Shown one piece after another: positions 18,257-33,292 of a DNA stretch of 64,000 nucleotides; position 1 is the first letter of the stretch, and the number at the start of each line of letters is the position of its first letter. Below the pieces are notes generated by a model. It made no database searches and was not told where the DNA came from. It saw nothing but the letters and a program-made list of their open reading frames with translations. This DNA comes from a virus. Its lineage: Duplodnaviria; Heunggongvirae; Uroviricota; Caudoviricetes. The stretch lies in the IMG/VR virus record IMGVR_UViG_3300009709_000001, positions 317,336-381,335 of that record; one strand, 5' to 3'. A program made the position numbers and the translations under genes.

Positions 18257-19456
18257 TTACCTATTGTTTTGGGGCGAATGGTTGTCCGGCTCGTACCAAG
18301 CAGTCATACCAAACGGTGCGACCAGCCGTCGTTGCGTATCGCCGTGGATGAGGAACAGAGTGTCGCAGTAATTCTCGTCACCCCAGCTACCGCAAGGATA
18401 GCCGTCAGTCATCACGATGAAGCGTTCCGGCATCACATCATTTTCCTTCATGTAATCCCAGTTCACTGTGAAGTCGGTACCGCCACCACCCTTCAGATCG
18501 TAGGTATCGATGTCATCGATATTTTCCGGCGTAAAGATCTGCGGGTTGTAAACGCGAGTGTCGAATGTCCAAACGGTAAGCTTGAAGTCCATGAACTGTT
18601 CCATGATGCCCTTGACTTCGCCGAGCAAGTCACGCAGCATGTCTTCAGACATAGAACCCGATGCGTCAATTGCCACAGCGGCCTCGACACGTACATCTTC
18701 CTTCGTACCCGGCAGGTAGATGCCGCTCGACTGAGACTTACGCGAGCAGCGACTCCAGGTGAAGTCATTGCGAATCATCGACTGAATCTTCATGTTCAGG
18801 ATTTCACGCCAATCCATCTGCGGATTGGTCAAATCCTTCAGCATGCGCTTCACACCTGCAGGCACATTGCCAGCGCCAGCTGCCTTCGAAGCTTGCATCA
18901 CGGCAGCACGGATCTCGTCGCCCAGGATACGGCGTTCTTCCTCTGTCATCGGCTCACCCTTGCCATCGCCTGGCTCCAAGTGGATGTCGAATTCGGGGAA
19001 CTTCTGGCTCGGGTCCTTCATTAGGGCTTCGTACACTTCTTCAGCGAACATACCCTTGAACTTGGGATCGAAGCAGGCAGTCACACCAGATGTCTTGGGG
19101 TCGGGGATCTTACCGACACTGTTCTCGTGGAGTTCCCAGTTGATGACGTAGTCGGCAGCAGCGTTCCAAGCCTTCGGCTTACGCGAACCACGACGACCCA
19201 TGTGGTCATAGACGCAGTGTTCCACTTCGTGCGCAACCAAGAAAATCGTTTCTTGTTTGTTCAACTTCAGAATGAAGTTGCGATTGAAGTAGAAACTGCG
19301 ACCATCGGTGGCAGCAGTGGGGCACCAGCCATCGGGATCGTCGGTAGCGTCCTTCAGAATCAAGCGAGTGGCCAACGTGCCCCAGAACGGCTGTTGCAGA
19401 AGAAGAGAGATGCGTGCTCGCGTCAGCTGTTCAAATGCTTTTTCCTGATCGGTCAT
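18257..19456 (-). CDS. VWA-domain protein with N-terminal HExxH metallopeptidase-like domain (DUF2201-type MoxR partner)
   Basis: 'VAHEVEHCVYDH' HExxH motif in the N-terminal half; MIDAS motif 'AIDASGSMS' (DxSxS) in the C-terminal half; GC-rich. Confidence 0.8.
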   Translation of the reverse strand: MTDQEKAFEQLTRARISLLLQQPFWGTLATRLILKDATDDPDGWCPTAATDGRSFYFNRNFILKLNKQETIFLVAHEVEHCVYDHMGRRGSRKPKAWNAAADYVINWELHENSVGKIPDPKTSGVTACFDPKFKGMFAEEVYEALMKDPSQKFPEFDIHLEPGDGKGEPMTEEERRILGDEIRAAVMQASKAAGAGNVPAGVKRMLKDLTNPQMDWREILNMKIQSMIRNDFTWSRCSRKSQSSGIYLPGTKEDVRVEAAVAIDASGSMSEDMLRDLLGEVKGIMEQFMDFKLTVWTFDTRVYNPQIFTPENIDDIDTYDLKGGGGTDFTVNWDYMKENDVMPERFIVMTDGYPCGSWGDENYCDTLFLIHGDTQRRLVAPFGMTAWYEPDNHSPQNNR

Positions 19457-20418: not shown

Positions 20419-21405
20419 ATGGTAAATGTATTCTATAAGGAATTTCTAAAGATGAAGACACACAAATGCGAAAATATGACTTGCCAGAATAAATCCGAAA
20501 AGGATAAGTACGGCAATTATAAAAGATACTGCTCGGATGAATGCAAAAAGGTATCGAGATTATTAAAATTCAAAGAAACATATCAACATAAAGATATGGG
20601 TGCAATATTACAAAAACGAAAAGATACATTATTGTCTAAGTATGGTGTCGAGAACGCAGCATGTATATCTGAGGTCAAAGAAAAACTGCGTATAACCACT
20701 ACTAATACCGCGCAAATCCGCACAATAAAAACTAAAGAGACAAACTTAGCACGTTACGGCGTTGAGAGTACAAATTCCCTTGAGTCTGTTCAAGAGAAGA
20801 AAAAGCAAACCTTACTTGAAAGGTACGGCGTAGATCATCAACTTAAAATACCAGGAGTAGCTGCCGAAGTTTCGAAGAAGAATTCGGAAAATGCTAAGGA
20901 GCGACTAGTAAAGTCGAAGAAGACCAATCTTGAAAGATATGGATGTGAAAATCCATCTGCAAACGAAGATATCAAACTCAAAAGAACTGCAACTATGATT
21001 GAACGGTTCGGTGTAGAGAATGCATCGCAGAATGCTAAGGTTCAGTCGAAAAAAGTCAGGGCCGGCTTTAAGACTAAAAAATATACTTTCCCGTCCGGAA
21101 GAATAGACCATGTCCAAGGATATGAACCTTTGGCACTCAGTCAACTTTTACAGGAGGGATATCAAGAAAATGACATTATTACGCTTGATGAATTGATGCC
21201 GGAACTATGGTATCATGAATCGGATGGATCTAAGCGCAGATATTTCCCAGATATTTATATCCCGAAAGAAAATCTATTAATCGAAGTTAAATCCGAATAT
21301 ACTTATCGCGGATTTATTGGTTGGCTAATAACCAACCAATTAAAAGAGCAATGTGCCAGAGATGCTGGATTTAATTATCGACTAATGATAATGGTAAAGA
21401 AATAA
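20419..21405 (+). CDS. putative PD-(D/E)xK-type homing endonuclease with seven N-terminal ~22-aa 'RYGVE' repeats
   Basis: Plus-strand insert between minus-strand genes. It carries tandem repeats (LLSKYGVENAA..., NLARYGVESTN..., LLERYGVDHQL..., NLERYGCENPS..., MIERFGVENAS...). The C-terminus 'FPDIYIPKENLLIEVKSEY' fits a PD...(E)VK nuclease core. 'CATAAATA' lies 2 nt upstream of the ATG. Confidence 0.6.
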   Translation: MVNVFYKEFLKMKTHKCENMTCQNKSEKDKYGNYKRYCSDECKKVSRLLKFKETYQHKDMGAILQKRKDTLLSKYGVENAACISEVKEKLRITTTNTAQIRTIKTKETNLARYGVESTNSLESVQEKKKQTLLERYGVDHQLKIPGVAAEVSKKNSENAKERLVKSKKTNLERYGCENPSANEDIKLKRTATMIERFGVENASQNAKVQSKKVRAGFKTKKYTFPSGRIDHVQGYEPLALSQLLQEGYQENDIITLDELMPELWYHESDGSKRRYFPDIYIPKENLLIEVKSEYTYRGFIGWLITNQLKEQCARDAGFNYRLMIMVKK

Positions 21406-21434
21406 AAAAGCCCGGTTTAACCGGGCTTTTTGTT
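21404..21434. terminator. bidirectional rho-independent terminator between convergent genes
   Basis: AAAAAAGCCCGG-TTTAA-CCGGGCTTTTT has an A-run before and a T-run after, so it can terminate transcription from either strand. Confidence 0.7.
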
Positions 21435-21483
21435 GATAACTTACTTTGCAAAGGCGTTGTAAGTCATTGATTTTAAAGGATTT

Positions 21484-22710
21484 TCAGTCCTCGAGGATGA
21501 ACTTGCCGTACTTGTCGTGGAACGACTTGAACTGCTTCAGCTCACGGTGGTTGATCGGCAACGAATAGTCCCGCAGCGCGGTCTTGGCTCCCAGAACGAT
21601 CATCTCAGTCTGGAAGTTGTCCATCATGAACTTGAAGAAGTGGTCCACGCACTCGTGCCATTGCTTCATGTCGAAGCCGTCGCCATCGCCCTTGCCGTTG
21701 TTCTGCTTGGCCTTCAGCGACCATTCCTGCAGCGTGTAGCAGAGGCTGATGGTCAGCGAGTACATGGCAGACAGGTCCTTGACGTTCAGCGTCTTTTCCT
21801 TGCCCATCAGCACGTCTTCCGACTTCGGCATCTTCGCCGCAACGCGACGGTGTGCAGTGAACTCGGTAGCGTTGCCTTCACCGACGGTACCTGCCACGAG
21901 GGAGGTGTTCATCGATTCCGGCAGGCTGTCGCTGATCAGCTGGGACACGAAAGTCCAGGAACGCGGCGTAGCGAACGCCTTGTCCGGCGACTTCGGATCG
22001 AAGTCGAACAGCTTCTGCTTGTGGTGCGACAGGAAGCCCACAACGTCCGGGTGAACCTTGGCGCCGATCGCCCACTTCTGCCAGTCTTCGAAGTTCGAAG
22101 TCATCTCGATGTGAACCAGACGGTTTGCCAGCGGGCTGGGCATACGGTAGGTCACGCCCTTGTCGCTGTCGCGGTTACCAGCGCACAGCATGGACACGCC
22201 ATCGGGCAGGTGGTATTCGCCGACACGACGGTTCAGGATGAGCTGGTAAGCAGCAGCCTGCACGCTCGGAGGAGCAGCGTTGATTTCGTCCAGGAACAGG
22301 ATCGCGTTGCTCATGTCGTAAGCGGCGCGGATCGACAGGGCGTATTCGCGAGCAGTTTCAGCTTCTTCGCTGACGTCCTTCTCGTCGAACTTGGCCGCAG
22401 CGGCCTCTGCCTTCTCGACGTCCTTCTTCTTGATGGACTTCGGCAGGTCGGCAGGATGTGCCCACTTCATGGTCTTGGTCTCGACGTCGAAGTAGGGGAT
22501 GCCCTTGATGTCAGTCGGTTCGAGCAGCAGCAAGCGCATGTCGATCACCTTGCGACCGGCCTTTGCGCCGATTTCAGCGATCAGTTCCGATTTGCCAATG
22601 CCCGGGGGACCCCAGATCATTGCGGGGCGGCGCACTTCCATGCAGCGCTCCAGAAGAGTCTTGACGTCCTTCGGACGTTCTTGACGGGAAGTAGAATGAT
22701 TTGCAGCCAT
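21484..22710 (-). CDS. MoxR-family AAA+ ATPase (AAA_5; CbbQ/NorQ/CobS-like)
   Basis: Walker A 'GPPGIGKS', Walker B 'LFLDEINAAPP'; GC-rich; the long antisense plus ORF 21517..22734 is judged spurious. Confidence 0.85.
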   Translation of the reverse strand: MAANHSTSRQERPKDVKTLLERCMEVRRPAMIWGPPGIGKSELIAEIGAKAGRKVIDMRLLLLEPTDIKGIPYFDVETKTMKWAHPADLPKSIKKKDVEKAEAAAAKFDEKDVSEEAETAREYALSIRAAYDMSNAILFLDEINAAPPSVQAAAYQLILNRRVGEYHLPDGVSMLCAGNRDSDKGVTYRMPSPLANRLVHIEMTSNFEDWQKWAIGAKVHPDVVGFLSHHKQKLFDFDPKSPDKAFATPRSWTFVSQLISDSLPESMNTSLVAGTVGEGNATEFTAHRRVAAKMPKSEDVLMGKEKTLNVKDLSAMYSLTISLCYTLQEWSLKAKQNNGKGDGDGFDMKQWHECVDHFFKFMMDNFQTEMIVLGAKTALRDYSLPINHRELKQFKSFHDKYGKFILED

Positions 22711-22806
22711 GTGTTCTCCAGTTGGCGGGGTTAAAATTGCGTTGTGTCTGTATTATGTCTGCATGCAACGAATGAGTCAAACGGCAAATGCAGGTACTTG
22801 GGGAAA

Positions 22807-23478
22807 TTAAGAATAATGACCACCTTTTAGGATTTTCATAATTCGAATTTGGTCTGCTTCGTATTTGGCCTGTGCAGCCTCGAAGTCTTCATCGGCCCAT
22901 TGTTGGGCAAGGCTGGGCCAATCTTCCAAAAAGATAATTACATCCCAGCCCCATTCTTCGTTACCACCTCCCCCACTGGAAGTTTTAATTCCAACAAAGT
23001 TGAGGAGATTACTCATCGGGTAAGAACCAAAATTGGTAGTACGGCTTAGGGAACCTCGACAATAACCAGTCCACCCGGGATAACCGGTAGGTTTGTTCTT
23101 ATCTTGAGCACACCAATTCATGAGTCCCCAATCAGGACGTACATGAGAATTTGATGCATGCTTAAATGATGACATATCGAGCTTGATATTTGATATGTCA
23201 TCATTTGCGTGGAAAAAGTCTCCCCACTTGCCAGCCCTAATTGTATTACACCAATCCATAAGTTGTTTCTGGTGCTTTTGAATCCAGGGGCAGATTTCAT
23301 GAAGGTAACTTACTTCTTTCTTCAGTTCGCGAAGTTCCTTCAGAATGTTCGATACAGTCTTTTCGTACCTTGCTTGTGCTACCCGTTTCTTACGGAGTTC
23401 AAGAAGGTGTTCACCATATTCAGCTCTATCTGTGAATATAGAACCAGTGAAAGGACATTTATTAACGATGATTCTCAT
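22807..23478 (-). CDS. hypothetical protein (223 aa)
   Basis: Minus-strand ORF; Trp-rich; G-rich loop (SSGGGGNEEWGWD). Confidence 0.5.
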   Translation of the reverse strand: MRIIVNKCPFTGSIFTDRAEYGEHLLELRKKRVAQARYEKTVSNILKELRELKKEVSYLHEICPWIQKHQKQLMDWCNTIRAGKWGDFFHANDDISNIKLDMSSFKHASNSHVRPDWGLMNWCAQDKNKPTGYPGWTGYCRGSLSRTTNFGSYPMSNLLNFVGIKTSSGGGGNEEWGWDVIIFLEDWPSLAQQWADEDFEAAQAKYEADQIRIMKILKGGHYS

Positions 23479-23749
23479 ATTTCAATTTAAAAATCGTTGC
23501 ATGTTCTTCATGAAGAAAATAGAATGAGAATTCGTATCTCCAGACTACATCTTTTGACCAACACCAATCGTCACCAAACTGCTCGTCACAATAGTCGAAT
23601 ATTTCATTAAATTTTAGTCCCGGGACATTGTCAAAAGAGACTTTTGTCCAATCTTGCACCTTTTCTTGCCAATTGTCGGATGTAAGTTCGAATTTAGCAA
23701 CCTTCCGAGCAAGGCTCAGGGCCTTAATATCGGCCATCGTATAACTCAT
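23462..23749 (-). CDS. hypothetical protein (95 aa), 'EDA-motif' family-like C-terminus
   Basis: Ends 'WRYEFSFYFLHEEHATIFKLKYENHR'. Confidence 0.45.
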   Translation of the reverse strand: MSYTMADIKALSLARKVAKFELTSDNWQEKVQDWTKVSFDNVPGLKFNEIFDYCDEQFGDDWCWSKDVVWRYEFSFYFLHEEHATIFKLKYENHR

Positions 23750-24087
23750 TTAACCTTCCCGGCTAAGACTTCCCACATCAACTTAGCTTCGGCCTCTTCG
23801 ATAAACGAGGGCCAGATCTCTAAAAGCTTTTCAGGCGAAATTTTGACATAGCCCTTGCGTAGTTTGCTCTCACGCAGCTTGTTTAGGTCATGACCCGTAA
23901 TATCCGCCTTAAACTGCATGGCTTTGCCCCTGCGTCCCCAGAATATGCAGCAGTTATAGCCCCAGTCTTTAGTAGTCCATGCAGCCGCATCGGGTGTGGG
24001 GCGCAAGAAGTAACCCCAGATCTTGTCCGAATTTCCCTCTTGGCACCAACCAATAAACACAAATTCTGTAGTCATAGTGTTATTCAA
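23746..24087 (-). CDS. hypothetical protein (113 aa)
   Basis: Minus-strand ORF. Confidence 0.45.
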   Translation of the reverse strand: MNNTMTTEFVFIGWCQEGNSDKIWGYFLRPTPDAAAWTTKDWGYNCCIFWGRRGKAMQFKADITGHDLNKLRESKLRKGYVKISPEKLLEIWPSFIEEAEAKLMWEVLAGKVK

Positions 24088-24096
24088 TAGTCATAA

Positions 24097-24104
24097 GATA
24101 AATA
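24097..24104 (+). promoter_or_regulatory. late-promoter-like GATAAATA box upstream of GIY-YIG gene
   Basis: GATAAATA 24 nt upstream of the ATG at 24129, with AGGAG at 24113-24117 as RBS. Confidence 0.35.
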
Positions 24105-24128
24105 TAGTTTAGCAGGAGAATAGAAATT

Positions 24129-24881
24129 ATGCAAGAATTTAAACCAACATGGTTATACATAAAGAAACACAATATCACTGGTTTACAATATTTCGGTAAA
24201 ACAAATAGATATCATCCCGAGAAATATATAGGGTCTGGAAAATACTGGCTAGCGCATTTAAGGGTGCATGGAAAAGATATATCAACAACATGGTGTGAAC
24301 TATTCTTCGACCAGCAAACATTGGTAGAATATGCGCTTAAATTTTCAAAAGAAAATAATATAGCCGAATCAAGTGAATGGGCCAATCTTAAGTTTGAAAA
24401 CGGTCTTGATGGAGGTCACAGTGGCGTGGCAAGGAGCGATGAGACAAAGGAAAAATTATCTAAGAAAAATAGAGGAAAACGACATACAAAGGAAACCAAA
24501 AATAAAATTTCAGATTCCAATAAAGGTAAACATAACATGGTAAGACCTGCAGATGTCGGAGCCAAAATTTCGAAAGCACTGACCGGTAAAAAACGAGGTC
24601 CAATGCCAGATGAAACAAAAAGAAAAATTGGTGATGCAAATAAAGGAAAACCTTCATCAAAGAAGGGTATACCAATGCCAGATGAAACAAAAAGAAAAAT
24701 TGGTGATGCAAATAAAGGAAAACCTTCATCAAAGAAGGGTATACCTAGGTCAGCTATTGATAAAGATAAAATCAGAAAAGGCCAAGAAAATGTACCCGAA
24801 ATAACTTGCCCACACTGTCATATTTCAAATAAACCCGGATGTATGAAAAGATGGCACTTTGATAATTGTAAAAAGAAATAA
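24129..24881 (+). CDS. GIY-YIG homing endonuclease with NUMOD3 repeats and C-terminal Zn finger
   Basis: N-terminus 'LYIKKHNITGLQYFGKT...YIGSGKYW' is a GIY-YIG core. It has repeated 'ETKxKISxxNKGK' modules, including an exact duplicated one. The C-terminus is 'CPHCHISNKPGCMKRWHFDNCKKK'. Confidence 0.8.
   Translation: MQEFKPTWLYIKKHNITGLQYFGKTNRYHPEKYIGSGKYWLAHLRVHGKDISTTWCELFFDQQTLVEYALKFSKENNIAESSEWANLKFENGLDGGHSGVARSDETKEKLSKKNRGKRHTKETKNKISDSNKGKHNMVRPADVGAKISKALTGKKRGPMPDETKRKIGDANKGKPSSKKGIPMPDETKRKIGDANKGKPSSKKGIPRSAIDKDKIRKGQENVPEITCPHCHISNKPGCMKRWHFDNCKKK
24600..24743 (+). repeat. perfect 72-bp tandem duplication (2 copies) inside GIY-YIG gene
   Basis: 24600-24671 is identical to 24672-24743; in the protein this duplicates 'MPDETKRKIGDANKGKPSSKKGIP' exactly. 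Confidence 0.9.
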
Positions 24882-24905
24882 GGTGACTTAGTCACCTTAT
24901 TTAGA
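24881..24905. terminator. bidirectional hairpin terminator between convergent genes
   Basis: AGGTGAC-TTA-GTCACCT followed by TATTT on the plus strand and UAUUUCUUUUU on the minus strand. Confidence 0.6.
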
Positions 24906-24921
24906 TTGACGTCAACTGGCT

Positions 24922-25545
24922 TTAGAAGAACAAGCCGCCGAATGCAATGCAGATAATCGTCAGGACGAGCATGACCCAGAAGCCAAGCCATTCGCCGTCG
25001 GTTTTGAGGTCGCCAAAGCTCTTCGGGATGCGAATCAGCTTCGTGCCCTTGAAGAATCCACCCAGGTACGAATATTCCACCTTCTCGTAACGGGCAGTGA
25101 ACAGGCGCTTGTAGATCACACGCACCATCGTCAGGCCCACCGTCAAGAAGATCACACCGTAGAGTGCCTTCATCAGCGCTGCACCAGCGACCTTCCAGAT
25201 GATGATCAGTGCGGTCAGCTTACCCGCGTCAGACTTGAGGAAGTCATTTATCGTGACATTCAGTTCCTTGGCTGCGATGCCCATGGCCTTGGCAAAGCCT
25301 TCGGCTGCGGCAGCGGCCTGTTGGCCCCAGGTTGCAGCGAGTGTCATTGTGGCACCCACATCCTTGGCGGGCGCAGCAGCATCGGCGACACCCTTGGCCT
25401 GTTGTGCGACGATCTGGGCAGCGTGTGCCTTCAGGTCTGCGATCTGGGCATCGGACAGACCCGATGTATCGATATTCGTGCTAGCCGCGAAAGAGGTTGC
25501 GGCGCACAGTGCGAGTGCCATACCGGCGATCATTTTGCGAAACAT
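24922..25545 (-). CDS. Ala-rich membrane protein (207 aa): signal peptide plus two C-terminal TM helices
   Basis: Signal-like N-terminus (MIAGMALALCAATSFAAS), an Ala-rich periplasmic part, then TM segments (LTALIIIWKVAGAALMKALYGVIFLTVGL ... WLGFWVMLVLTIICIAFGGLFF); GC-rich. Confidence 0.55.
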   Translation of the reverse strand: MFRKMIAGMALALCAATSFAASTNIDTSGLSDAQIADLKAHAAQIVAQQAKGVADAAAPAKDVGATMTLAATWGQQAAAAAEGFAKAMGIAAKELNVTINDFLKSDAGKLTALIIIWKVAGAALMKALYGVIFLTVGLTMVRVIYKRLFTARYEKVEYSYLGGFFKGTKLIRIPKSFGDLKTDGEWLGFWVMLVLTIICIAFGGLFF

Positions 25546-25585
25546 GGTTTTCCTTTCAGAACAAAGTTTTAACTGACAAATGCAT

Positions 25586-25608
25586 TATAGGGCCACCAGG
25601 GCCCTATA
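25586..25608 (-). terminator. GGGCC-core hairpin between GC-rich genes
   Basis: TATAGGGCC-ACCAG-GGCCCTATA, a 9-bp stem; it shares a GGGCC/GGCCC core with the hairpins at 26844 and 31341. Confidence 0.4.
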
Positions 25609-25641
25609 GTCAACTGAGTTTTACGTCAATTGGAACTGGTT

Positions 25642-26820
25642 TTACCAGTCGCTGCTGCCGGAATCGCTGCTGGAGCTGCTGCCGGAGTCGGACGAACCCC
25701 AGCTGCTGCCGCTGTCGCTGCTCGAACTGGACCAGCTGCTGGAACGGCTGCTGCTGTCGTCATCGTCACGGCTGGACGAATAGCTCGGAGCAGGGGCCGG
25801 CGCGTAGTACGGTGCAGGGGCGGGAGCCGGTTCCGGGGCAGAGCTGGAGCTGAACTCGGAAGTACCACCCCACTCGGCGTCGTCCTTGGCCGAGCTGCTG
25901 AAGGTCGGTGCAGGTGCCGTGATCACGGGCGGGGTGTACGTCGAAGCACTCGAACTGTAGTCACTGGTGCCCGAGGATTCCTCGCGGCGTCGACGAGTCA
26001 CAGTGTCATCATCATGACGATGACGGAGCGCATCGCTGATCATGTTGCCAGCAACCACACCACCTGCCACTGCCACACCCGTTTCCAGAGCCGACGGACC
26101 GGTATGGACCACGGTCGGAGGAACATAGGTGGGTGCCGGAGGAGCCGTATAGGTGCGCGACGGACGGGACCATGCAGCCGGGCTCGGTGCCGGAGGCGTC
26201 GAATAGGTGCTGCGAGTGGTACCCATACCGCTACTGGCCGTGGTCACAGAGGAGGGAGCCGAGGTAGCGGTTGCAGTCACAGGACTGGAGAAGTCGACGC
26301 CACCGTCTTCAGACTTGGTCCGGCGATACCAGTAGTAGCCCAGGCCACCCAGCGTGAACAGGAACAGCAGAACCAGGAACTTGGAACCGAACGAGCTGCC
26401 TTCATCGGCCGGCTTCGTTACCGCCACGGGTTGTGCCTGCACTTGAGGTGCAGCTTGGACGACCACGGGAGGAGGGGGCGGCACATAGGCCTGGACCACC
26501 GGCTGACGGGCGCCGGCGATGTCGCGTTCCATCTTGGCGAACAGGCGCGAACCGAGCACGTCACCCTTGTGATCGTATGCGCGGACGGCGTCCAGTTCAC
26601 GCTGGGCGAGATTGGGGTCTCGTTCCAGACACATGATCGTTGCCGCATTCAGCAGGTGAGCGCGAGCGCTATCCGGGCGCGACACCAGGATCTCATTCAC
26701 GTAATTGCGCGCTTGGGCGCAGTTGCCGTTTTCCAGGGCGGATTCGACCTGCTTCGGACTGGGGAGGGCCATTGCGGTCGCAGACAGCAAGGCAAGGGAA
26801 AGGGACAGAATACGCTTCAT
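25642..26820 (-). CDS. secreted bitopic protein with TPR-like N-domain, poly-Pro linker, TM helix and Ser/Thr/Pro-rich tail (392 aa)
   Basis: Signal peptide (LSLSLALLSATAMALP), then a helical TPR-like segment and 'PPPPPVVVQAAPQVQAQP'. This is followed by the TM helix 'FLVLLFLFTLGGLGYYWY' and a long S/T/P/A-rich tail ending in SSSDSGSS repeats. About 65% GC; the antisense plus ORF 25630..26826 is judged spurious. Confidence 0.6.
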   Translation of the reverse strand: MKRILSLSLALLSATAMALPSPKQVESALENGNCAQARNYVNEILVSRPDSARAHLLNAATIMCLERDPNLAQRELDAVRAYDHKGDVLGSRLFAKMERDIAGARQPVVQAYVPPPPPVVVQAAPQVQAQPVAVTKPADEGSSFGSKFLVLLFLFTLGGLGYYWYRRTKSEDGGVDFSSPVTATATSAPSSVTTASSGMGTTRSTYSTPPAPSPAAWSRPSRTYTAPPAPTYVPPTVVHTGPSALETGVAVAGGVVAGNMISDALRHRHDDDTVTRRRREESSGTSDYSSSASTYTPPVITAPAPTFSSSAKDDAEWGGTSEFSSSSAPEPAPAPAPYYAPAPAPSYSSSRDDDDSSSRSSSWSSSSSDSGSSWGSSDSGSSSSSDSGSSDW

Positions 26821-26843
26821 GTGTAGCTCCTTGGGGGTGAAAA

Positions 26844-26865
26844 CTGGGGCCCCGAAGGGCCCCAG
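26844..26865 (-). terminator. GC-rich hairpin terminator/attenuator after AAA ATPase gene
   Basis: Minus-strand RNA: CUGGGGCCC-UUCG-GGGCCCCAG followed by UUUUCACCCCCAAGGAG(RBS)...AUG of the next gene. Confidence 0.5.
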
Positions 26866-26868
26866 GGG

Positions 26869-27966
26869 TCAGATTGCAGCCATCCAGTCGTAGTTGGCGC
26901 GGCCGTACACCTCACGGGTGAACACCACGACCGTCTGCGCCGGCGTACCTTCGTCGACCACGTAAGTGAACGTACCCGCTTCCGGTTCGATGCGCTTCAG
27001 GTGCTTCGGATTCAGCTCCAGGGTGAAGCTGTCGTCCTTGTCTTCCGGGCAGCCGGCCGACTCGCCAACGCTGATGTTCAGCTCTTCGCTGGCCACCGGG
27101 CTTCCGCGCCACGTGTCGGGGTAGATGCGGTTGGTGTCGATCGCCTTGCCTTCGCGGATGATGCTGACCTTGTGGCGCATGCTGCTGTCGGCGAACGGTT
27201 TCGCGTTGAGCAGTTCCAGCACTTGGTGCGGCGTCTCGTTGTAGCGGTTCATGTCTTCGACCAGCGCCTTCAGCATGTCGAAGTTGAAGCTTTCGTACAG
27301 CATGGCCAGACGGCAGATCGTCGGGATGTGCGTCTTGTCGTTGAGGCGATCGTTGCAGTATTCTTCGATGAACGCTGCGTCGATGCCCTTGTACTCCAGG
27401 CAGTAGAAGACACGACCCGGCCGATTGCGCATGTGGCTGTTGACGCGGTACTTGTCGTTGCAGGTCAGGATGAACAGCTTCTTGCTCGGGAACACGCCGT
27501 CGAGCAGGGTCAGGATAGCTTCCTGTTCCTTTTCGCCGAACACCTTCTCGAACTCGTCGAACACGACCACGCACGGCTGGTTGATGTTCTGAATGAAGGC
27601 GTTGAAGCCGTCACCGCAGAAGTCGCTGTTGATGACCAGGACGGGCATGTTGTGCGCTTCAACCGCGTTCTTGGCGATGAGCTTGGCCAACATCGTCTTG
27701 CCCGAACCCTTTTCGCCGGTCAGCAGCACACCAGTGCTGTTCGGGCGATCGAGGAAGGTGCTCATGATGCGATCAGCACGGCCGTGGATGTTGCCGTAGA
27801 TCTTGCCGTCGATGTTGAAGTTGTTGATGGGCTTCAAGAAGAAGCCTCGGCCCGGCATTGCACCGACCGTGTACGTGCCCGGGGGCAGCGTCTCGTGCAT
27901 GTCGAGCGCCGCTTTCGGGGTGGGGAAAAACAAGCCGCCTTCGCGGGAGAAAATGGTGCTACTCAT
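26869..27966 (-). CDS. classical-clade AAA ATPase (365 aa)
   Basis: Walker A 'GEKGSGKT', Walker B 'VVVFDEFE', SRH-like 'TCNDKYRVNSHMRNRPGRVFY'; a ~90-aa N-terminal domain; GC-rich. Confidence 0.8.
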   Translation of the reverse strand: MSSTIFSREGGLFFPTPKAALDMHETLPPGTYTVGAMPGRGFFLKPINNFNIDGKIYGNIHGRADRIMSTFLDRPNSTGVLLTGEKGSGKTMLAKLIAKNAVEAHNMPVLVINSDFCGDGFNAFIQNINQPCVVVFDEFEKVFGEKEQEAILTLLDGVFPSKKLFILTCNDKYRVNSHMRNRPGRVFYCLEYKGIDAAFIEEYCNDRLNDKTHIPTICRLAMLYESFNFDMLKALVEDMNRYNETPHQVLELLNAKPFADSSMRHKVSIIREGKAIDTNRIYPDTWRGSPVASEELNISVGESAGCPEDKDDSFTLELNPKHLKRIEPEAGTFTYVVDEGTPAQTVVVFTREVYGRANYDWMAAI

Positions 27967-28056
27967 CGCTTCTTTCTTGGTTGCGGGATAAATCCCTGGT
28001 TAAATTTGTTTAACAGTCTCTATTTTATGCAGACGCGTGCGGTGACGCAACTGATT

Positions 28057-28287
28057 TTATAGGTTGTAGTTTCTGATCCAGGAAGCCGTTTCTTCGTTGT
28101 CGGTATACAACATAATTTTCGAATGCGGATCGTAACCCTGCTTTTCGATAATATATGTTTTCGAATCAACGGAATCCTTCAGAGAGCGGAAGAAATCCGC
28201 CATTTCCAAAAGATTCTCCATATTGATCTGGCCAAAGTTGAAACCAAACTTGGCCTTCCGTGCTTTCACTTCAACAAAGACACTCAT
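28057..28287 (-). CDS. hypothetical protein (76 aa)
   Basis: Minus-strand small ORF; ends 'LYTDNEETASWIRNYNL' (acidic motif echo). Confidence 0.4.
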   Translation of the reverse strand: MSVFVEVKARKAKFGFNFGQINMENLLEMADFFRSLKDSVDSKTYIIEKQGYDPHSKIMLYTDNEETASWIRNYNL

Positions 28288-28364
28288 AGCGTACCCACCA
28301 CAGTTTCATCTTTTAATTTCCAAATGCCATCGCCAATTATTGGTCCAAAAAGATAAATAAACAT

Positions 28365-29192
28365 ATGAATACTCCATTTCTAAATAACAAATATACTGCC
28401 CGATATTATAAAATTATTAATACCGTTTTAGAATTAAATCGAAAGAAATTAAAAAGAAATAACCCTGATTACAGGTATTATGAATTGCATCATATTATTC
28501 CCAAATCATTAGGTGGTGACAATTCTTCTGCAAATCTTATACCTTTGACACCAAGGGAACATTATATATGCCACCTTTTACTCACCCGAATGACTGAAGG
28601 TAAAAATAGATATAAGATGCTCTGTGCATTCAACAGAATAACAAATAGAGGCCAGGCAGAAATTAAAAATTCTAGATTATATAATTCTATTCGAGAAGAC
28701 TTTTCGAAATCGCAGGCCGAAAATTATAAAGGTGATAAAAATCATTTTTATGGAAAGACTCACACAAAAGAAATCAGAGATTATTTAGCTGAGGTATGTC
28801 CACGATTCGGTAAAGATAATGGCAATTTTGGTAAATCATTATCTCAATCACAAAAAGATGCAATTTCGAAAAGTAATAAATCCAGAAAAATTATACCTCC
28901 ACCTCCGCAACTCGGTTCAAAAAATCATTTTTCTAAGATTTATAAAATAATCGACCCAACCGGTAATAAATTTACAATAAAATGCATGAGTGAATTTTGT
29001 GAAAGAAACAATCTTTGTAGTCGAACAATGATTTTATTTAAGGACAAAGGAAAAATTCCTGAATTGCAATTCGAACGAGAATATCGTGTAAAGAATCTCC
29101 AAGCAAAGAAGAACTGTGAAGGTTATTCTATTATTTCAATGACCTCGCCCCTTGGTCCTTTTCCATCAATCGACCATACAGTTACCGGATAA
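28365..29192 (+). CDS. HNH homing endonuclease with NUMOD-like repeats
   Basis: 'YYELHHIIPKSLGGDNSSANLIPLTPREHYICHLLL'; GATAAATA at 28352-28359 lies only 5 nt upstream of the ATG. Confidence 0.85.
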   Translation: MNTPFLNNKYTARYYKIINTVLELNRKKLKRNNPDYRYYELHHIIPKSLGGDNSSANLIPLTPREHYICHLLLTRMTEGKNRYKMLCAFNRITNRGQAEIKNSRLYNSIREDFSKSQAENYKGDKNHFYGKTHTKEIRDYLAEVCPRFGKDNGNFGKSLSQSQKDAISKSNKSRKIIPPPPQLGSKNHFSKIYKIIDPTGNKFTIKCMSEFCERNNLCSRTMILFKDKGKIPELQFEREYRVKNLQAKKNCEGYSIISMTSPLGPFPSIDHTVTG

Positions 29193-29626
29193 GTAACTGT
29201 TTCTTCAATAATGCTCTTAATTATATTCCACGAACCTCCGCCGAGGCCAGCACCAATAAACGGAATATGAATTTCCTTGGGTTGAAGATCTGCCATGCTT
29301 TCGAAGCCAGCATTTAGGTAATCCTCAACTTGTTGAAAACAAGTCTGAACTGCGTCATAACTTGTATGACGACCTGGACCACCAAACCCGTCTTGTGTCA
29401 CGGCATTCCAAATCTTGAGATTGATCGTTGCCAGAGATGGATATGCATTACCGAGTTTAAGCTTACCGGCTTCATATAGCTCACGGTAATCAAGATACAC
29501 ACTCGGATAAAGATTCTTGACTCCGAGCGCAACACCCGAACCCATCACACCTTGTGCGTTACAACCATGGACAATATGTCCGGCTGTGACATTGAACAAA
29601 TTACCGGTTTTGACTTGGATCTTCAT
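29123..29626 (-). CDS. macro-domain protein (ADP-ribose binding/processing)
   Basis: 'GHIVHGCNAQGVMGSGVALGV' matches the macro-domain N-AAN...GGGV signature, and 'IHIPFIGAGLGGGSW' matches the second glycine-rich loop. Confidence 0.7.
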   Translation of the reverse strand: MKIQVKTGNLFNVTAGHIVHGCNAQGVMGSGVALGVKNLYPSVYLDYRELYEAGKLKLGNAYPSLATINLKIWNAVTQDGFGGPGRHTSYDAVQTCFQQVEDYLNAGFESMADLQPKEIHIPFIGAGLGGGSWNIIKSIIEETVTYPVTVWSIDGKGPRGEVIEIIE

Positions 29627-29636
29627 TTCTTACCTT

Positions 29637-30155
29637 TCAGTATTCGGCAGGACCTTCTTCGATCTCGGGACGAACAATTTCGACACGAGCGCAATACTTC
29701 TCTTTCCACGACTTGTAAGCTTCCTTGACAAAGCCGTCCGGATCATTGCGATGTGCTTCCTTATATTCTTGGCGTTTCTCACTAAACCAAGACATTAGCG
29801 CTACGAAGCCTATTGCAAGGCCAAGGACAGCGATGACACCCATGGCGAGCTGGGCAACCTCGCTGAAGATGAACATGCCATACCAGAGGCTGAAACCGAT
29901 GCCAACAAGTATTTGCGACACGACAAAAGATGCAAGAGTTACACCGAGCAGAATAAGCCCGATTGTCAACAATGAAAACAGGAAGTATCTTGTGTAGGAA
30001 CAAATATCCACAAGGTCACGATCGCGTGCCGGTGTATATTTGTAAATCATCTTGTAATGCCAGCTATCGGGGCTAAACTTGAGAGTTTTCATTATTCGAT
30101 CCTTTGGTTGAGTGTTTTGGTTACATCTTCGATCAGAATGTCCTCGGGGATCCAT
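29637..30155 (-). CDS. membrane protein (172 aa, ~3 TM)
   Basis: Hydrophobic helices (YFLFSLLTIGLILLGVTLASFVV, IGFSLWYGMFIF, AMGVIAVLGLAIGFVALM). Confidence 0.5.
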   Translation of the reverse strand: MDPRGHSDRRCNQNTQPKDRIMKTLKFSPDSWHYKMIYKYTPARDRDLVDICSYTRYFLFSLLTIGLILLGVTLASFVVSQILVGIGFSLWYGMFIFSEVAQLAMGVIAVLGLAIGFVALMSWFSEKRQEYKEAHRNDPDGFVKEAYKSWKEKYCARVEIVRPEIEEGPAEY

Positions 30156-30544
30156 TCGACCTTGTGACTTTCGTACACACGGGTATAGAACTCGCTGCTG
30201 CCGAACAGATCGTGCACAAATTCATGAGCACAATCACCGAAGTCTTCGGTGTCGAGATATTCGGCAATGTTCTCATCGGGCATTGCTTCCGGAGGATGCC
30301 TCTTGAATAGTGTGCGCATTGCAGCAACGTAGGTCTTTTGCTCCCTGTCATTAGGCTCATACATATTACCGAAACCAGCCGGCCAGTTGTTCTTCGATTT
30401 GTGTAGAAGGGCAAGTTCGACCAACAACTTGACTTGAGGAAGAGTAAGACCTTCGGTAATGGTTGTGTTGTAACTATCACCGTCATTTTCCCATGACGTG
30501 ACAGTCAATCGGTAACCCTTAGGGATTCGTGTTTGGACGCTCAT
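30092..30544 (-). CDS. hypothetical protein (150 aa)
   Basis: Minus-strand ORF; partially overlaps its neighbour. Confidence 0.45.
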   Translation of the reverse strand: MSVQTRIPKGYRLTVTSWENDGDSYNTTITEGLTLPQVKLLVELALLHKSKNNWPAGFGNMYEPNDREQKTYVAAMRTLFKRHPPEAMPDENIAEYLDTEDFGDCAHEFVHDLFGSSEFYTRVYESHKVEWIPEDILIEDVTKTLNQRIE

Positions 30545-30759
30545 TTCTTACCTTTCAGTTTTTCTACTACCTTTTCCATATCGTATAATGCCTTGCATTC
30601 AGGTGGCATACCGATACTTCCTACGACTGCCATACAAGTGGTGCAGCGATAACTGATTCCACTTGAGATATCGAATTCTGCAATACTTCCACAGAGCAAC
30701 TCGATGTCAGGCTCATTACTCGGTTCTATATAAGACCAATCAGGATTTGATTTCCACAT
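30541..30759 (-). CDS. small Cys-rich zinc-ribbon-like protein (72 aa)
   Basis: 'LCGSIAEF...CTTCMAVVGSIGMPPECKAL' could form a four-Cys site. Confidence 0.4.
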   Translation of the reverse strand: MWKSNPDWSYIEPSNEPDIELLCGSIAEFDISSGISYRCTTCMAVVGSIGMPPECKALYDMEKVVEKLKGKK

Positions 30760-30762
30760 CTT

Positions 30763-31035
30763 TTATAAATTCTTTCCGGAGAGTTTCGCAATTATTTGTT
30801 CTTCTTCAATAAATTTCTTCGCTTCGGTTATGAACGTAAGTAGCTCATTCGGACTTACCTTAGTGCTTAGGCTGAAATTACCCTGAGACATAATCAGTTC
30901 GCCATTGCTCTTGATTGCTATTCTAACATCCTTACTGGCATAACCAGTACTTGCATCACACTGTTGGACTTCAATGCCGATTCGATCGGATTGACCTTCC
31001 ATCTCATTAACCGTTAAATACCGTACAGTTGTCAT
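30763..31035 (-). CDS. hypothetical protein (90 aa)
   Basis: Minus-strand ORF. Confidence 0.4.
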   Translation of the reverse strand: MTTVRYLTVNEMEGQSDRIGIEVQQCDASTGYASKDVRIAIKSNGELIMSQGNFSLSTKVSPNELLTFITEAKKFIEEEQIIAKLSGKNL

Positions 31036-31112
31036 TGTGTTTGTGTGCGTGTGGCGTTGCGTATTGTGCGTTGGAATTTAACGTTAAAACCGTGCAATTT
31101 AGCGTGGCTGCT

Positions 31113-31307
31113 TTAGATTCTGCCCTGTAGCTTTAAAAAGGTATAGCGCTCTTGCAAAGCTTCGTTAAACTCTTCGAGTGTCCAACCCCTCATTTCGCAA
31201 ATCTTGGTTAGTACTGCCGCATCTGTTATCGACGTGTTCATTCGATAAATTGCAAGTTCATTTCGCAATACATCAAAATCACACTTTACAATAGGTGAAT
31301 GGTCCAT
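31113..31307 (-). CDS. hypothetical protein (64 aa)
   Basis: Minus-strand small ORF. Confidence 0.35.
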   Translation of the reverse strand: MDHSPIVKCDFDVLRNELAIYRMNTSITDAAVLTKICEMRGWTLEEFNEALQERYTFLKLQGRI

Positions 31308-31340
31308 GCAACATTATTGCACGGACCATCGAAAACTACA

Positions 31341-31359
31341 ACAGGGCCAAGGGCCCTGT
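31341..31359 (-). terminator. GGGCC-core hairpin after SPFH gene
   Basis: ACAGGGCC-AAG-GGCCCTGT starting 6 nt past the stop at 31365, followed on the minus strand by UGUAGUUUUCG. Confidence 0.45.
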
Positions 31360-31364
31360 GTTTC

Positions 31365-32612
31365 TTAGCGCTTGTTGGTTGCTGCGCCGCCCTTGACCGA
31401 CAAGTCGATGCCCATTTCACGAGCAGTCTTTGCCGTCATCAGGTCCACCAGATCAGTTGCACGGCTGGCCGAACCACCCGAACCCGATGCGCCCATCACC
31501 ACTTGCGGGCTCCAAGCACCCGGTTGTGCCTTCTCGATCGCCGCTGCGTACAGGCCGTTGATCTTGACCAGCGCTTCCAGCTTCTTGTCCAGTTGACCGT
31601 CAGCTTCCATGACCAGGCGCTTGCGAGTTGCTTCACCTTCACCGCGCAGCACTTCAGACTTCTTGAACGCTTCTGCTTCCTTGACTTGCGCTTCCGCGAT
31701 CGTCACTCGAGCTTGGGCTTCAGCAATCGTCTTCGCAGCCAGGGTCTTTTGTTCCCATTCGGCCTTGGCAGCGTTTGCCTTACCTTGAGCTTCGGCAGTC
31801 AGCGTATCCTGGTCGGCCTTCTTCGCAGTTGCGATGGCCACCACAGCCGCGTTCGTTGCCGCCTGTTGTTCCTGAATCTGCTTCTCGACACGGTCCTCGT
31901 ACTTGAAGCCCGAGATCGTCATCGGCAGCATCTGCACGTTGTACTTCTGCACATAGCTGGCCTGAGCACGCAGCGGAGCACCCTTTTCATCCTTGATGAT
32001 CTCGGTGACCGTCATGTCCTTTTCCACACCAGCGATGTCCTTGGCACGAACCACCACGCTTCGCGTCTTGTAGACGCCGTTCAGCGTTTGATCGTTCATG
32101 ATCTGCAGGAGTTCGTTGCGACGACCAGCTGCCGATTCGAACGAAGTCATCGTCGGACCGGAGAAGGTTGCAGCCGATTCCATGGAGCGTCGGATGGCTT
32201 GCAGCTCGAAGGCTTCGGCCGAACGGAACTCCTTGTGGATCTCGATCACGTCTTTCGGCGTCAGGGGCATCAGCCACGAGATGGAGCCGCAGAGTGCCGC
32301 GTTACCGCCGTCATAGAAACGAATCGCCAGACCAGCGGATGCTTGCGCATGAGCTTTGTCAGTGTCGTTCTTGGCGCAGGCCGGGTCGATGAACTTCAGT
32401 TCGTTACGACGCGGGTACTTGGTGACAGTGCCGAAGCCTTGCCATTTCCAGCCCGGGTCGGTATATACCGCCAGTTCGCCCGACATCGGGCTTTGGATCA
32501 CCATGATCTCCGATGCATCCAGGTTCTCCACCAGCATGGGCGCCGAGATCATCAGGAACAGGGCCACGAAAGCGGCACTGCCGCCAATCAAAACACGTTT
32601 CAAGGACATCAT
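31365..32612 (-). CDS. SPFH/Band-7 (flotillin/HflK-like) membrane protein
   Basis: N-terminal TM helix, a band-7-like core, then a long Ala/Glu/Lys-rich coiled coil (AEAQGKANAAKAEWEQKTLAAKTIAEAQARVTIAEAQVKEAEAFKK); GC-rich; the antisense plus ORF 31299..32672 is judged spurious. Confidence 0.7.
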   Translation of the reverse strand: MMSLKRVLIGGSAAFVALFLMISAPMLVENLDASEIMVIQSPMSGELAVYTDPGWKWQGFGTVTKYPRRNELKFIDPACAKNDTDKAHAQASAGLAIRFYDGGNAALCGSISWLMPLTPKDVIEIHKEFRSAEAFELQAIRRSMESAATFSGPTMTSFESAAGRRNELLQIMNDQTLNGVYKTRSVVVRAKDIAGVEKDMTVTEIIKDEKGAPLRAQASYVQKYNVQMLPMTISGFKYEDRVEKQIQEQQAATNAAVVAIATAKKADQDTLTAEAQGKANAAKAEWEQKTLAAKTIAEAQARVTIAEAQVKEAEAFKKSEVLRGEGEATRKRLVMEADGQLDKKLEALVKINGLYAAAIEKAQPGAWSPQVVMGASGSGGSASRATDLVDLMTAKTAREMGIDLSVKGGAATNKR

Positions 32613-32857
32613 TCCTTCTTCTCCAGTTGTGCCTTACGGCGGTTGATTTCATCCAGTTCTTCGCGAAGGTGAACGTATTCACGCGCTTCTTCGAGCTCGT
32701 GCTCGGCAGCGTCGACCTTCACCTTCTGCTCCGTATCCTTGCGGAAATTCGGGAAAAGAGGAGTGCCGTACGCCAGCGGCAGACCGACTTGGGTTACGAA
32801 TAGAATCGCAACGCCAAACAGGGCGGCCAAAATCAGCAAATCAAGCAAAACAATCAT
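32609..32857 (-). CDS. small single-pass membrane protein co-transcribed upstream of SPFH gene (82 aa)
   Basis: TM helix 'MIVLLDLLILAALFGVAILFV', then a charged helix; its stop overlaps the SPFH gene start (ATGA), as in flotillin/NfeD-type pairs. Confidence 0.45.
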   Translation of the reverse strand: MIVLLDLLILAALFGVAILFVTQVGLPLAYGTPLFPNFRKDTEQKVKVDAAEHELEEAREYVHLREELDEINRRKAQLEKKE

Positions 32858-32926
32858 TTTTCCATCTCCTGCGGCGCAAGCAAAATTGTTGACCGCAAAT
32901 GCATTATAACAGTTACAGGAAGTGGG

Positions 32927-33292
32927 TCAACTGGCTTGCTTAGTGAGCCAGCCAAAAGATAGAATTTTAATTTCACGTTTTGCCTTTAGCATGCCGTGTT
33001 CTACCAAATCCGGACGAAATAGTGTAAATCTCCACCATCGTCGACATTTACCCAAAACATACATTCGATCACCCACAAAATTTCGACCTTCGAAAACGAA
33101 ATTAATTCGATGATGATTGTAGCCGGGCTTCACGGGATCCTTGTGCGTAGGCACAGACACCCCTTCTGGGATTTTGAGGAGGTAAAGATCGCATTTGAAA
33201 AATTCAGAAATCCAAAGCGGCATTTTAAAGTAACCGCTTCCTTGTCGACCTTCAATCCATTTAAAGCTCATCAGCCAGATCCTCAAGTTCAC
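32927..33292 (-). CDS. hypothetical protein (121 aa)
   Basis: Minus-strand ORF. Confidence 0.4.
   Translation of the reverse strand: MNLRIWLMSFKWIEGRQGSGYFKMPLWISEFFKCDLYLLKIPEGVSVPTHKDPVKPGYNHHRINFVFEGRNFVGDRMYVLGKCRRWWRFTLFRPDLVEHGMLKAKREIKILSFGWLTKQAS

Follow-up and report, generated by a model that had tools for sequence, protein, structure and literature searches.

Why should three adjacent, co-directional genes in an otherwise AT-rich phage genome have a GC content of 60%? The question is raised by positions 24922..27966 of a 64,000-nucleotide (nt) window from a virus of the class Caudoviricetes (IMG/VR record IMGVR_UViG_3300009709_000001, positions 317,336 to 381,335; all coordinates below are those of the window unless another phage is named). 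A sequence-only reading of the window had seen in these genes an operon of foreign composition, acquired by the phage, directed at the host envelope and not recognizable as a described system. The three open reading frames (ORFs) have exactly the coordinates that it gave, all on the minus strand, and encode AAA365 (26869..27966; 365 amino acids (aa), GC 59.2%), a soluble classical-clade AAA+ ATPase resembling Bcs1 and YjoB, TPR392 (25642..26820; 392 aa, GC 63.5%), a bitopic protein of a TPR and DUF2076-like family, and Mem207 (24922..25545; 207 aa, GC 56.9%), an Ala-rich inner-membrane protein. Envelope targeting is indeed predicted for two of the three products.

The compositional contrast is sharp. 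The region has 60.0% GC, the whole window 43.2%, and the DNA polymerase B gene (58200..61151) 42%, in line with the ~40% that had been attributed to the replication genes. Set against 1-kb windows outside four GC-rich islands (mean 41.5%, standard deviation 2.7, maximum 48.8), the excess amounts to z = 6.5-7.9, and composition along the window is thus clearly not uniform; only the range of 60-70% GC originally given for the three genes was slightly high. The answer to the question is that this high GC is a gene-specific synonymous bias toward optimal codons ending in C or G, kept across lineages.

Codon bias of the GC-rich genes

GC at third codon positions (GC3) is 0.86 in AAA365, 0.69 in TPR392 and 0.70 in Mem207, against ~0.37 in background genes. 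Three further minus-strand genes of the window belong to the same class: those of a MoxR-like AAA+ ATPase (21484..22710; GC3 0.79), of a metallopeptidase with a VWA-like region (metallopeptidase-VWA; 18257..19456; 0.65) and of an SPFH/Band-7 protein (31365..32612; 0.69). Amino-acid composition can be ruled out as the source of the excess in AAA365 and MoxR, in which GC at second positions (GC2 0.38 and 0.39, respectively) equals the background; GC2 is 0.40 in the metallopeptidase-VWA gene and 0.44 in both Mem207 and the SPFH gene. In TPR392, a protein rich in Ser, Ala and Pro, composition does account for part of the GC, first and second positions (GC1 and GC2) both being ~0.60.

The same orthologues are GC3-rich in five relatives (loci L018, L021, L023, L047 and L048), with values of 0.65-0.82 against 0.35-0.50 for their neighbours. 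When the ATPase genes of different lineages are compared at four-fold degenerate sites of conserved residues, the fraction of identical third bases is 0.49-0.60, the value expected for independent draws from the codon use of each gene being 0.46-0.52, and the synonymous sites of background genes are similarly near saturation between lineages. Orthologues that are nearly saturated still carry the GC3 bias, which a mere remnant of import would by now have lost; it is thus being maintained.

This is difficult to reconcile with the notion that the whole three-gene block is a foreign module that arrived recently from a host or phage of high GC and has still to ameliorate. Such an origin would explain the step of 18 points in GC found at both borders, would be in accord with the homing endonuclease genes that flank the block on both sides, and finds some support in the homologues of TPR392 carried by Burkholderiales phages and prophages of 60-66% GC. 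However, besides the bias kept by near-saturated orthologues, in most of ~17 related lineages AAA365 and Mem207 keep their places among the flanking AT-rich genes, the same bias is seen in the three unlinked conserved genes of the window and in the MoxR gene of Pseudomonas phage PA5oct, and the codon pattern is unlike that of average GC-rich genomes. Import of the entire block is therefore very improbable, and for AAA365 and Mem207 it is largely refuted by their synteny and conserved GC3 bias; what survives of the acquired module first proposed is TPR392 alone.

The codons themselves point in the same direction. GC3-rich genes favour CTG, CGC/CGT, GGC/GGT, AAG and, among two-fold pyrimidine codons, NNC, while GAA stays at 0.61-0.80 and GGG, CGG, AGA/AGG and most NNA codons are absent or nearly so. 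Pooled over the six genes, the values are 0.40 for CGT, 0.43 for GGT, 0.68 for GAA, 0.00 for GGG and 0.04 for CGG; GGG, CGG and GAG are all clearly higher in the average genes of Limnohabitans and of a Burkholderia prophage. In proteobacterial codon bias, a profile of this kind reflects translationally optimal codons and not mutational GC pressure or GC-biased conversion. The latter process, acting at recombination hot spots created by homing endonucleases, deserves separate mention, as three homing endonuclease genes stand immediately beside GC3-rich genes of the window and, in PA5oct, two are found ~1.3 kb from the GC3-rich MoxR gene. Conversion should nevertheless lift all codons ending in G or C, which does not agree with the lack of GGG and CGG, the persistence of GAA and the frequent use of CGT, GGT and GCT. 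Moreover, the GC3 pattern is no different in L018, L021, L023 and L048, which have no endonuclease at these positions, and the borders of the islands coincide with ORFs, not with endonuclease sites, all of which makes gene conversion a hardly credible source of the islands.

Bias of the same kind is found in some cultured phages. PA5oct has 33% GC and its host 66% (PMC7318152), and its MoxR gene (L049, 234078..235193 of that genome) has a GC3 of 0.67 among neighbours at ~0.22. In Phosso (L050, 163278..165914 of that genome), the MoxR gene and an adjoining gene for a 422-aa VWA protein show a GC3 of 0.77; the AAA365 orthologue of Pumpernickel has the highest GC3 at its locus, and in phi92, the host of which is E. 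coli, there is no GC3 contrast at the locus of the orthologue. According to a RefSeq note, the MoxR protein of PA5oct has been detected by electrospray ionization tandem mass spectrometry (ESI-MS/MS).

The explanation towards which we lean is translational selection: codons would be matched to the tRNAs available in a GC-rich host so as to permit high or early expression. If this is correct, the genes concerned would be expressed strongly or very early, from host-type promoters, in a phage that is itself AT-rich. The host is probably a beta- or gammaproteobacterium, and the relatives of TPR392 offer a hint of Burkholderiales. Several points weigh against this explanation. The match with host codons is judged from general proteobacterial patterns, and high or early expression is inferred from codons and motifs. 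Promoter-like sites in 21000..33000 are no commoner than in shuffled sequence, what supports them being conservation only; the GC3 of Mem207 is just mildly raised in several relatives (0.52-0.57); and the GC3 survey covers this 64-kb window of a ~385-kb genome.

Whatever the cause, an abrupt rise in GC within a phage genome does not have to signal horizontal transfer, and heuristics designed to find islands or foreign DNA would misfile such genes. Were codon tuning to be confirmed, GC3 islands would provide a cheap guess of host GC for uncultivated jumbo phages and would also reveal which of their non-structural genes are expressed most strongly. A literature search on conserved GC3 islands in jumbo phages yielded nothing specific, and we found no earlier description of conserved, gene-specific codon tuning that affects a few genes for chaperones and membrane proteins in jumbo phages that are AT-rich while their hosts are GC-rich.

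The ATPase and the membrane protein encoded 3' of it

AAA365 had been taken for a classical AAA ATPase with a motif resembling the second region of homology, and this is borne out by a match to PF00004 (E = 3.3e-12; 47.4 bits versus a cut-off of 21.2) together with the arginine fingers of an RPGR motif. The Walker A motif GEKGSGKT (G84-T91), the Walker B residues D137-E138, the sensor-1 residue N170 and R182/R185 of RPGR are invariant in 40 homologues, and all core motifs are covered when the protein is aligned to the D2 domain of p97. AAA365 matches phrog_2376 at 5e-92, and its homologues (>5585) are spread over thousands of large-phage contigs. In an AlphaFold2 (AF2) model with a predicted local distance difference test score (pLDDT) of 79.6, the classical AAA core lies between an N-terminal beta region of ~55 residues and a beta-rich domain at the C terminus, and both structure-search methods return Bcs1 and YjoB as the top PDB matches. 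FtsH, which is characterized by two transmembrane (TM) helices and, at its C terminus, by an M41 zinc protease domain, was also considered. This identity is ruled out, as AAA365 has neither a TM segment (no 19-residue window exceeds a Kyte-Doolittle hydropathy of 1.5) nor a peptidase match, and reaches 15.3 bits for FtsH_fam versus a cut-off of 600.

Bcs1 forms a heptameric ring that translocates folded substrates and is held in the membrane by an N-terminal TM anchor. AAA365 departs from it in having no such anchor and no detectable BCS1_N, a domain that it does not match (12 Pfam families, E <= 0.01), and departs from Bcs1 and YjoB alike in an additional C-terminal beta-rich domain of ~100 residues. 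It is nevertheless not a stranger, contrary to the initial impression that no described system was involved, since it corresponds to the phage BCS1-like AAA+ proteins of Iyer et al. (PMC7824862). In common with these and with the reference structures (Bcs1, 8t14 and 6u1y; Bacillus subtilis YjoB, 7w42), it has Walker A and B, sensor 1 and RPGR, an aromatic-x-Gly pore loop and a small beta-rich N-terminal domain, and it is likewise widespread in large phages (phrog_2376; phi92 gp190; Pumpernickel gp160). Two features set its clade apart among phage BCS1-like ATPases, namely the extreme GC3 and the membrane-protein gene located 3' of the ATPase gene. AAA365 thus joins a phage family that had already been described, and TPR392 and Mem207 are assigned to existing families that are uncharacterised.

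For the phage BCS1-like proteins, a role in membrane-proximal assembly has been proposed (Iyer et al., 2021; PMC7824862). That proposal and what is known of the family at large suggest that AAA365 could be a substrate-threading chaperone working near the membrane; with its F-x-G pore loop it would probably unfold or remodel proteins, plausibly at the inner membrane during assembly. Among defence-system profiles in PADLOC, AAA365 has only generic P-loop matches (E >= 2e-4) and TPR392 and Mem207 have none; NCBIfam too returns generic P-loop matches only.

Long antisense ORFs run through these genes on the plus strand, one of 353 aa at 27001..28062 and one of 398 aa at 25630..26826. In the public gene call of a Logan contig the former was taken in place of the ATPase, and for this reason AAA365 is missing from the protein collection, where its best match is 79% identical.

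Mem207 was correctly recognized as an Ala-rich membrane protein with a signal peptide: it contains 19% Ala, has a signal-like N-terminal segment and shows hydrophobic segments at residues ~107-149 and 182-207. It matches phrog_19575 over its full length (E = 1.6e-20), has 235 close homologues (58-80% identity) and belongs to a family with 943 cluster representatives (E <= 0.001). In its AF2 model, of moderate confidence (pLDDT 62.7), a signal/TM helix and amphipathic helices rich in Ala are accompanied by a long hydrophobic helix, a conserved beta-hairpin of basic character and a TM segment at the C terminus. The same layout of helices and TM segments is seen in the phage proteins of ~200 aa that make up phrog_19575, among which adjacency to an AAA+ gene and GC3 enrichment are peculiar to the present jumbo-phage clade. 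Among cultured phages, distant members occur in T5-like Vibrio phages such as Ceto (gp173; L131) and in Pseudomonas phage Noxifer (gp203; L132). In Ceto, gp173 adjoins a gene for PagP-like lipid A acylation and genes of NAD salvage.

Within the clade, the order macro - AAA - Mem - p223 - p113 - MoxR - VWA is conserved in most of the ~17 lineages (Mem207 in ~14), and among the 13 IMG/VR loci found via Mem207 there are 10 in which the ATPase gene is its immediate upstream neighbour. As judged by gene order, the ATPase-Mem207 pair is shown to be syntenic at the level of the clade, its members being core genes and not imports. A co-occurrence of all three genes elsewhere, which would be expected of a functional module, is seen in L018, L021, L023 and L047, but it is confined to this narrow subclade.

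Could the pair form a split translocase? AAA365 and Mem207, possibly with TPR392, might constitute a membrane-docked machine of the Bcs1 type, in which the ring would sit on the conserved cytoplasmic loop of Mem207 and carry phage proteins, in the folded state, to the inner membrane or through it. Bcs1 is among the top structural matches of AAA365 and possesses the N-terminal TM anchor that AAA365 does not have; a membrane-protein gene is always found 3' of the ATPase gene in the clade, under a conserved palindromic promoter; and such a machine would be in accord with the membrane-proximal assembly proposed by Iyer et al. Nevertheless, the absence of a detectable BCS1_N is at odds with it, the adjacency is a matter of one clade, and the two genes seem, at the level of motifs, to lie in separate transcription units. 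Outside the clade the partnership dissolves, which counts both against a split machine and against the wider interpretation developed here. A Mem-family gene is present within 5 kb in 7 of 72 loci with an AAA365 homologue of 43-62% identity, a number that stays at 7/72 when a broader Mem-family profile is used to search for hidden partners beside distant homologues; the loci of phi92 gp190 and Pumpernickel gp160 have no membrane-protein neighbour; and no Bcs1-like ATPase lies near the Mem-family genes of Ceto and Noxifer. The ATPase family in general is thus to be regarded as independent of TPR392 or Mem207 partners, and a split translocase strikes us as rather improbable.

It is similarly unlikely that Mem207 and TPR392 serve AAA365 as local partners. 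Both might alter or mark the host envelope as early proteins directed to it, and the idea that they act on their own, for instance in exclusion or envelope modification, can be entertained as a tentative possibility. The most ambitious scenario, which we regard as doubtful, is that AT-rich jumbo phages of GC-rich hosts keep a host-codon-optimised gene set for an early, membrane-proximal platform of proteostasis and assembly that includes a split Bcs1-type machine, with GC3 islands as its marker. If true, the platform would bring together two AAA+ chaperone systems, an SPFH scaffold and inner-membrane proteins, all made early and in large amounts, and the GC3 islands seen from PA5oct to uncultivated phages would mark both this programme and the GC of the host from sequence alone. 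The phage BCS1-like ATPase, Mem207 and TPR/DUF2076 families are abundant and uncharacterised, and their conserved neighbourhood provides a starting hypothesis.

TPR392 and the transcription signals around it

Every feature first noted in TPR392 was found again: a signal peptide (MKRILSLSLALLSATAMA), a TPR-like domain, a PPPPP linker followed by one TM segment (residues ~142-162), and a tail of 217 residues, rich in Ser, Ala, Pro and Thr, that ends in SSSDSGSS...SDW. TPR392 itself scores below Pfam cut-offs (17.6 bits for TPR_16, the cut-off being 32.7) and does not match DUF2076 at E <= 0.01. Its family is better defined, TPR_19 being matched by 25 of 31 members (best E = 1.4e-7) and DUF2076 (PF09849) by 21 of 31 homologues (best E = 3e-10). 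Conserved in the family are a predicted periplasmic TPR-like domain, a single TM segment, a cytoplasmic Gly-zipper (GVAVAGGVVAGN) and a tail with S-rich-W repeats and a C-terminal Trp. With the bitopic DUF2076/TPR_19 proteins of Burkholderiales and their phages, TPR392 thus has in common the signal peptide, the TPR-like domain (PDSARAHLLNA), the TM segment, the Gly-zipper and the Ser/Asp-rich tail with these repeats and the final Trp. It differs from them in its scores and in its place, its gene lying in a jumbo phage of AT-rich composition and being preceded by that of an AAA+ protein.

Members of the family often carry the automatic annotation YgcG, as in records of the Joint Genome Institute (JGI). 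This identity is ruled out, the TPM domain (PF04536) being found in 0 of 31 members, and the name probably arises from the combination of a TM segment with a low-complexity tail ending in Trp. One homologue in L021/L022 (P0126) has lost the linker and the TM segment, its TPR domain, Gly-zipper and S-rich tail being preserved, and would therefore no longer be a bitopic membrane protein.

The distribution of TPR392 differs markedly from that of its neighbours. It stands between AAA365 and Mem207 only in the closest relatives (L018-20, L021-22, L023-24 and L047, with ATPases 62-80% identical) and is absent from the 13 IMG/VR loci retrieved via Mem207. Other members of the clade have a TPR-family gene in place of Mem207 (L027), 3' of the ATPase gene (L054, a weak match) or upstream of the latter (L010). 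Outside the clade the family occurs alone in 18 of 19 IMG/VR viral contigs of 42-66% GC, and it is also present in a Burkholderia anthina prophage, in Pararobbsia and on a Limnohabitans chromosome. Comparison of these loci shows TPR392 to be, on sequence grounds, a mobile insertion in one subclade, placed between the terminator hairpin of the ATPase gene and the promoter of Mem207.

The signals on either side of TPR392 were examined in turn. The sequence-only reading had noted a hairpin followed by a ribosome-binding site and had interpreted the former as an attenuator. Both elements were found, on the minus strand. The hairpin (stem-loop 26844..26865; 26840..26865 with the U run) reads CUGGGGCCC-UUCG-GGGCCCCAG followed by UUUU and has a 9-bp stem of G and C only, and the Shine-Dalgarno sequence AAGGAG (26827..26832) lies 6 nt 5' of the ATG of TPR392. 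Folded in a 66-nt context, the hairpin is not extreme (z = -1.8). It is kept in L018, L021, L023 and L047, each time with a U run, and the pair beside the loop-closing pair is C-G, A-U or G-C; this conservation in four relatives, with compensatory changes, argues that it is more than a chance structure. Attenuation, by contrast, finds no basis in the 48-nt spacer, which folds into a single dominant hairpin (frequency 0.58) and contains neither a leader ORF nor an alternative pairing. To us it looks like a leaky intrinsic terminator or a 3' stabiliser. A promoter scan between the hairpin and the ATG of TPR392 found no promoter-like site, which makes read-through the probable route of TPR392 expression.

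Upstream of the ATPase gene lies a promoter-like sequence, TTGCGT-17-TAAAAT (28022..28050, minus strand), which was read from the sequence and falls under the threshold of the scan but is conserved as TTGCAT-17-TATAAT in L018, TTGCGT-17-TATAAT in L021 and TTGCAA-17-TAAAAT in L047. The promoter scan did pick up a near-consensus site of the sigma-70 type 5' of Mem207, TTGACT-18-TATAAT (25584..25613, minus strand), the spacer of which contains a 9-bp palindrome (25608..25600 / 25594..25586) that overlaps the -10 element. This palindromic promoter is kept before the Mem207 orthologue in L018, L021, L023 and L047, stands directly after the stop codon of the ATPase gene in L010, L011, L027 and L054, and is the only palindromic one among the 18 promoter-like sites of the window; it may function as an operator or combine the roles of terminator and promoter. 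Mem207 is followed by an intrinsic-terminator-like hairpin with a 12-bp stem and a T run (24870..24902, minus strand; z = -3.96, 0 of 200 shuffled sequences as stable). Sites resembling sigma-70 promoters are not specific to the GC-rich genes, ~20 of them being spread over the minus strand of the window.

The single operon initially envisaged is thus not upheld. A conserved hairpin with a U run follows the first gene and a conserved TTGACT-18-TATAAT precedes the third, which argues, at the level of motifs, for two units. In the first, a promoter would drive AAA365 as far as the leaky UUCG hairpin, read-through yielding TPR392 at a lower level; in the second, Mem207 would be transcribed from a strong palindrome-bearing promoter up to its terminator.

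These signals bear on a further possibility, according to which TPR392 alone is an acquired, moron-like gene whose product acts by itself at the envelope, in superinfection exclusion or in masking a receptor or peptidoglycan, with Mem207 as an independent early protein. The solitary occurrence of its family in nearly all viral loci outside the clade and in prophages, its variable presence among close relatives and a GC content within the range of phages of the donor type (60-66%) would all be expected on this basis, as would the high GC1 and GC2, part of the GC of TPR392 being due to its amino-acid composition. The early or auxiliary regions in which distant Mem-family genes are found in T5-like Vibrio phages, beside the PagP-like gene, are also in accord with it. 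However, the clade shows at least four arrangements in which a TPR-family gene adjoins AAA365, more than random insertion would lead one to expect, and TPR392 has no promoter of its own, depending on read-through from the ATPase unit. We consider this account possible without favouring it. The region as a whole does resemble morons of the Hendrix type in its deviating composition, in the promoter- and terminator-like sites around single genes and in the presence or absence of TPR392, but unlike morons AAA365 and Mem207 are conserved and syntenic, and their compositional difference is a maintained codon bias instead of a sign of recent import.

The phage and other genes of the window

The phage is placed, from its gene complement, among the 'group 2.2' jumbo myoviruses of Iyer et al. 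(2021; PMC7824862), as an uncultivated member of ~385 kb. This follows from DNA polymerase B, which is 40-43% identical to those of Phosso (Sinorhizobium), Atu_ph07 (Agrobacterium) and RaK2-like Klebsiella phages, from the MoxR-like ATPase, which shares 48.5% identity with that of PA5oct, and from the presence of RtcB, macro-domain, metallopeptidase-VWA and SPFH proteins. The same proteins are encoded on a JGI contig of 385,394 bp and on an independent Logan contig, and the region is therefore no assembly chimera. Against cultured phages, neither megablast of 24000..29000 nor tblastn of TPR392 and Mem207 gave a match, and the 64-kb window contains no tRNA genes.

Pairs of a MoxR AAA+ ATPase and a metallopeptidase-vWA chaperone component have been described in jumbo phages of group 2.2 (PMC7824862), an example being the ATPase YP_010679065 of PA5oct. 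The pair found here (the partner of MoxR being of the DUF2201_N/DUF2201 type) belongs to the GC3-rich codon class and is conserved across the clade. Each of its genes has its own sigma-70-like site 5' (22780..22752 for MoxR), and a terminator-like hairpin is seen only after MoxR (21431..21405). Unlike AAA365, this ATPase is of the MoxR/AAA_5 clade and not a classical AAA, and it lies outside the three genes originally flagged. The SPFH/Band-7 protein (415 aa; PF01145 at 4.7e-6, above the cut-off) has an N-terminal TM segment, and its gene is kept in relatives, where it is moderately GC3-rich as well.

A macro-domain gene (29123..29626, minus strand) and a gene for an RtcB RNA ligase (35619..36884, minus strand; GC3 0.54) are located near the region and are kept in all relatives; their products suggest a set for RNA repair and ADP-ribose counter-defence. 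On the minus strand at 17784..18251, an ORF of 155 aa with no Pfam match has a lipobox-like N terminus (…AAMSGC), suggestive of a phage lipoprotein.

Three genes of the homing-endonuclease type, of 32-37% GC and all on the opposite strand, are each inserted beside a conserved GC3-rich gene, and the constrained synonymous sites of such genes may make them good targets for homing. They are a DUF7487 gene (20419..21405, plus strand, AT-rich), an HNH endonuclease gene (28365..29192, plus strand, 32% GC; phrog_655 at 1e-34, weak HNH matches) and a GIY-YIG/NUMOD3 gene (24129..24881, plus strand, 35% GC; NUMOD3 at 7e-14, phrog_314), the last being absent at this position in the relatives examined. 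Within the GIY-YIG/NUMOD3 gene, 24610..24760 contains a tandem duplication of ~72 bp, by which the peptide MPDETKRKIGDANKGKPSSKKGIP is repeated and twin hairpins are formed at 24738 and 24666.

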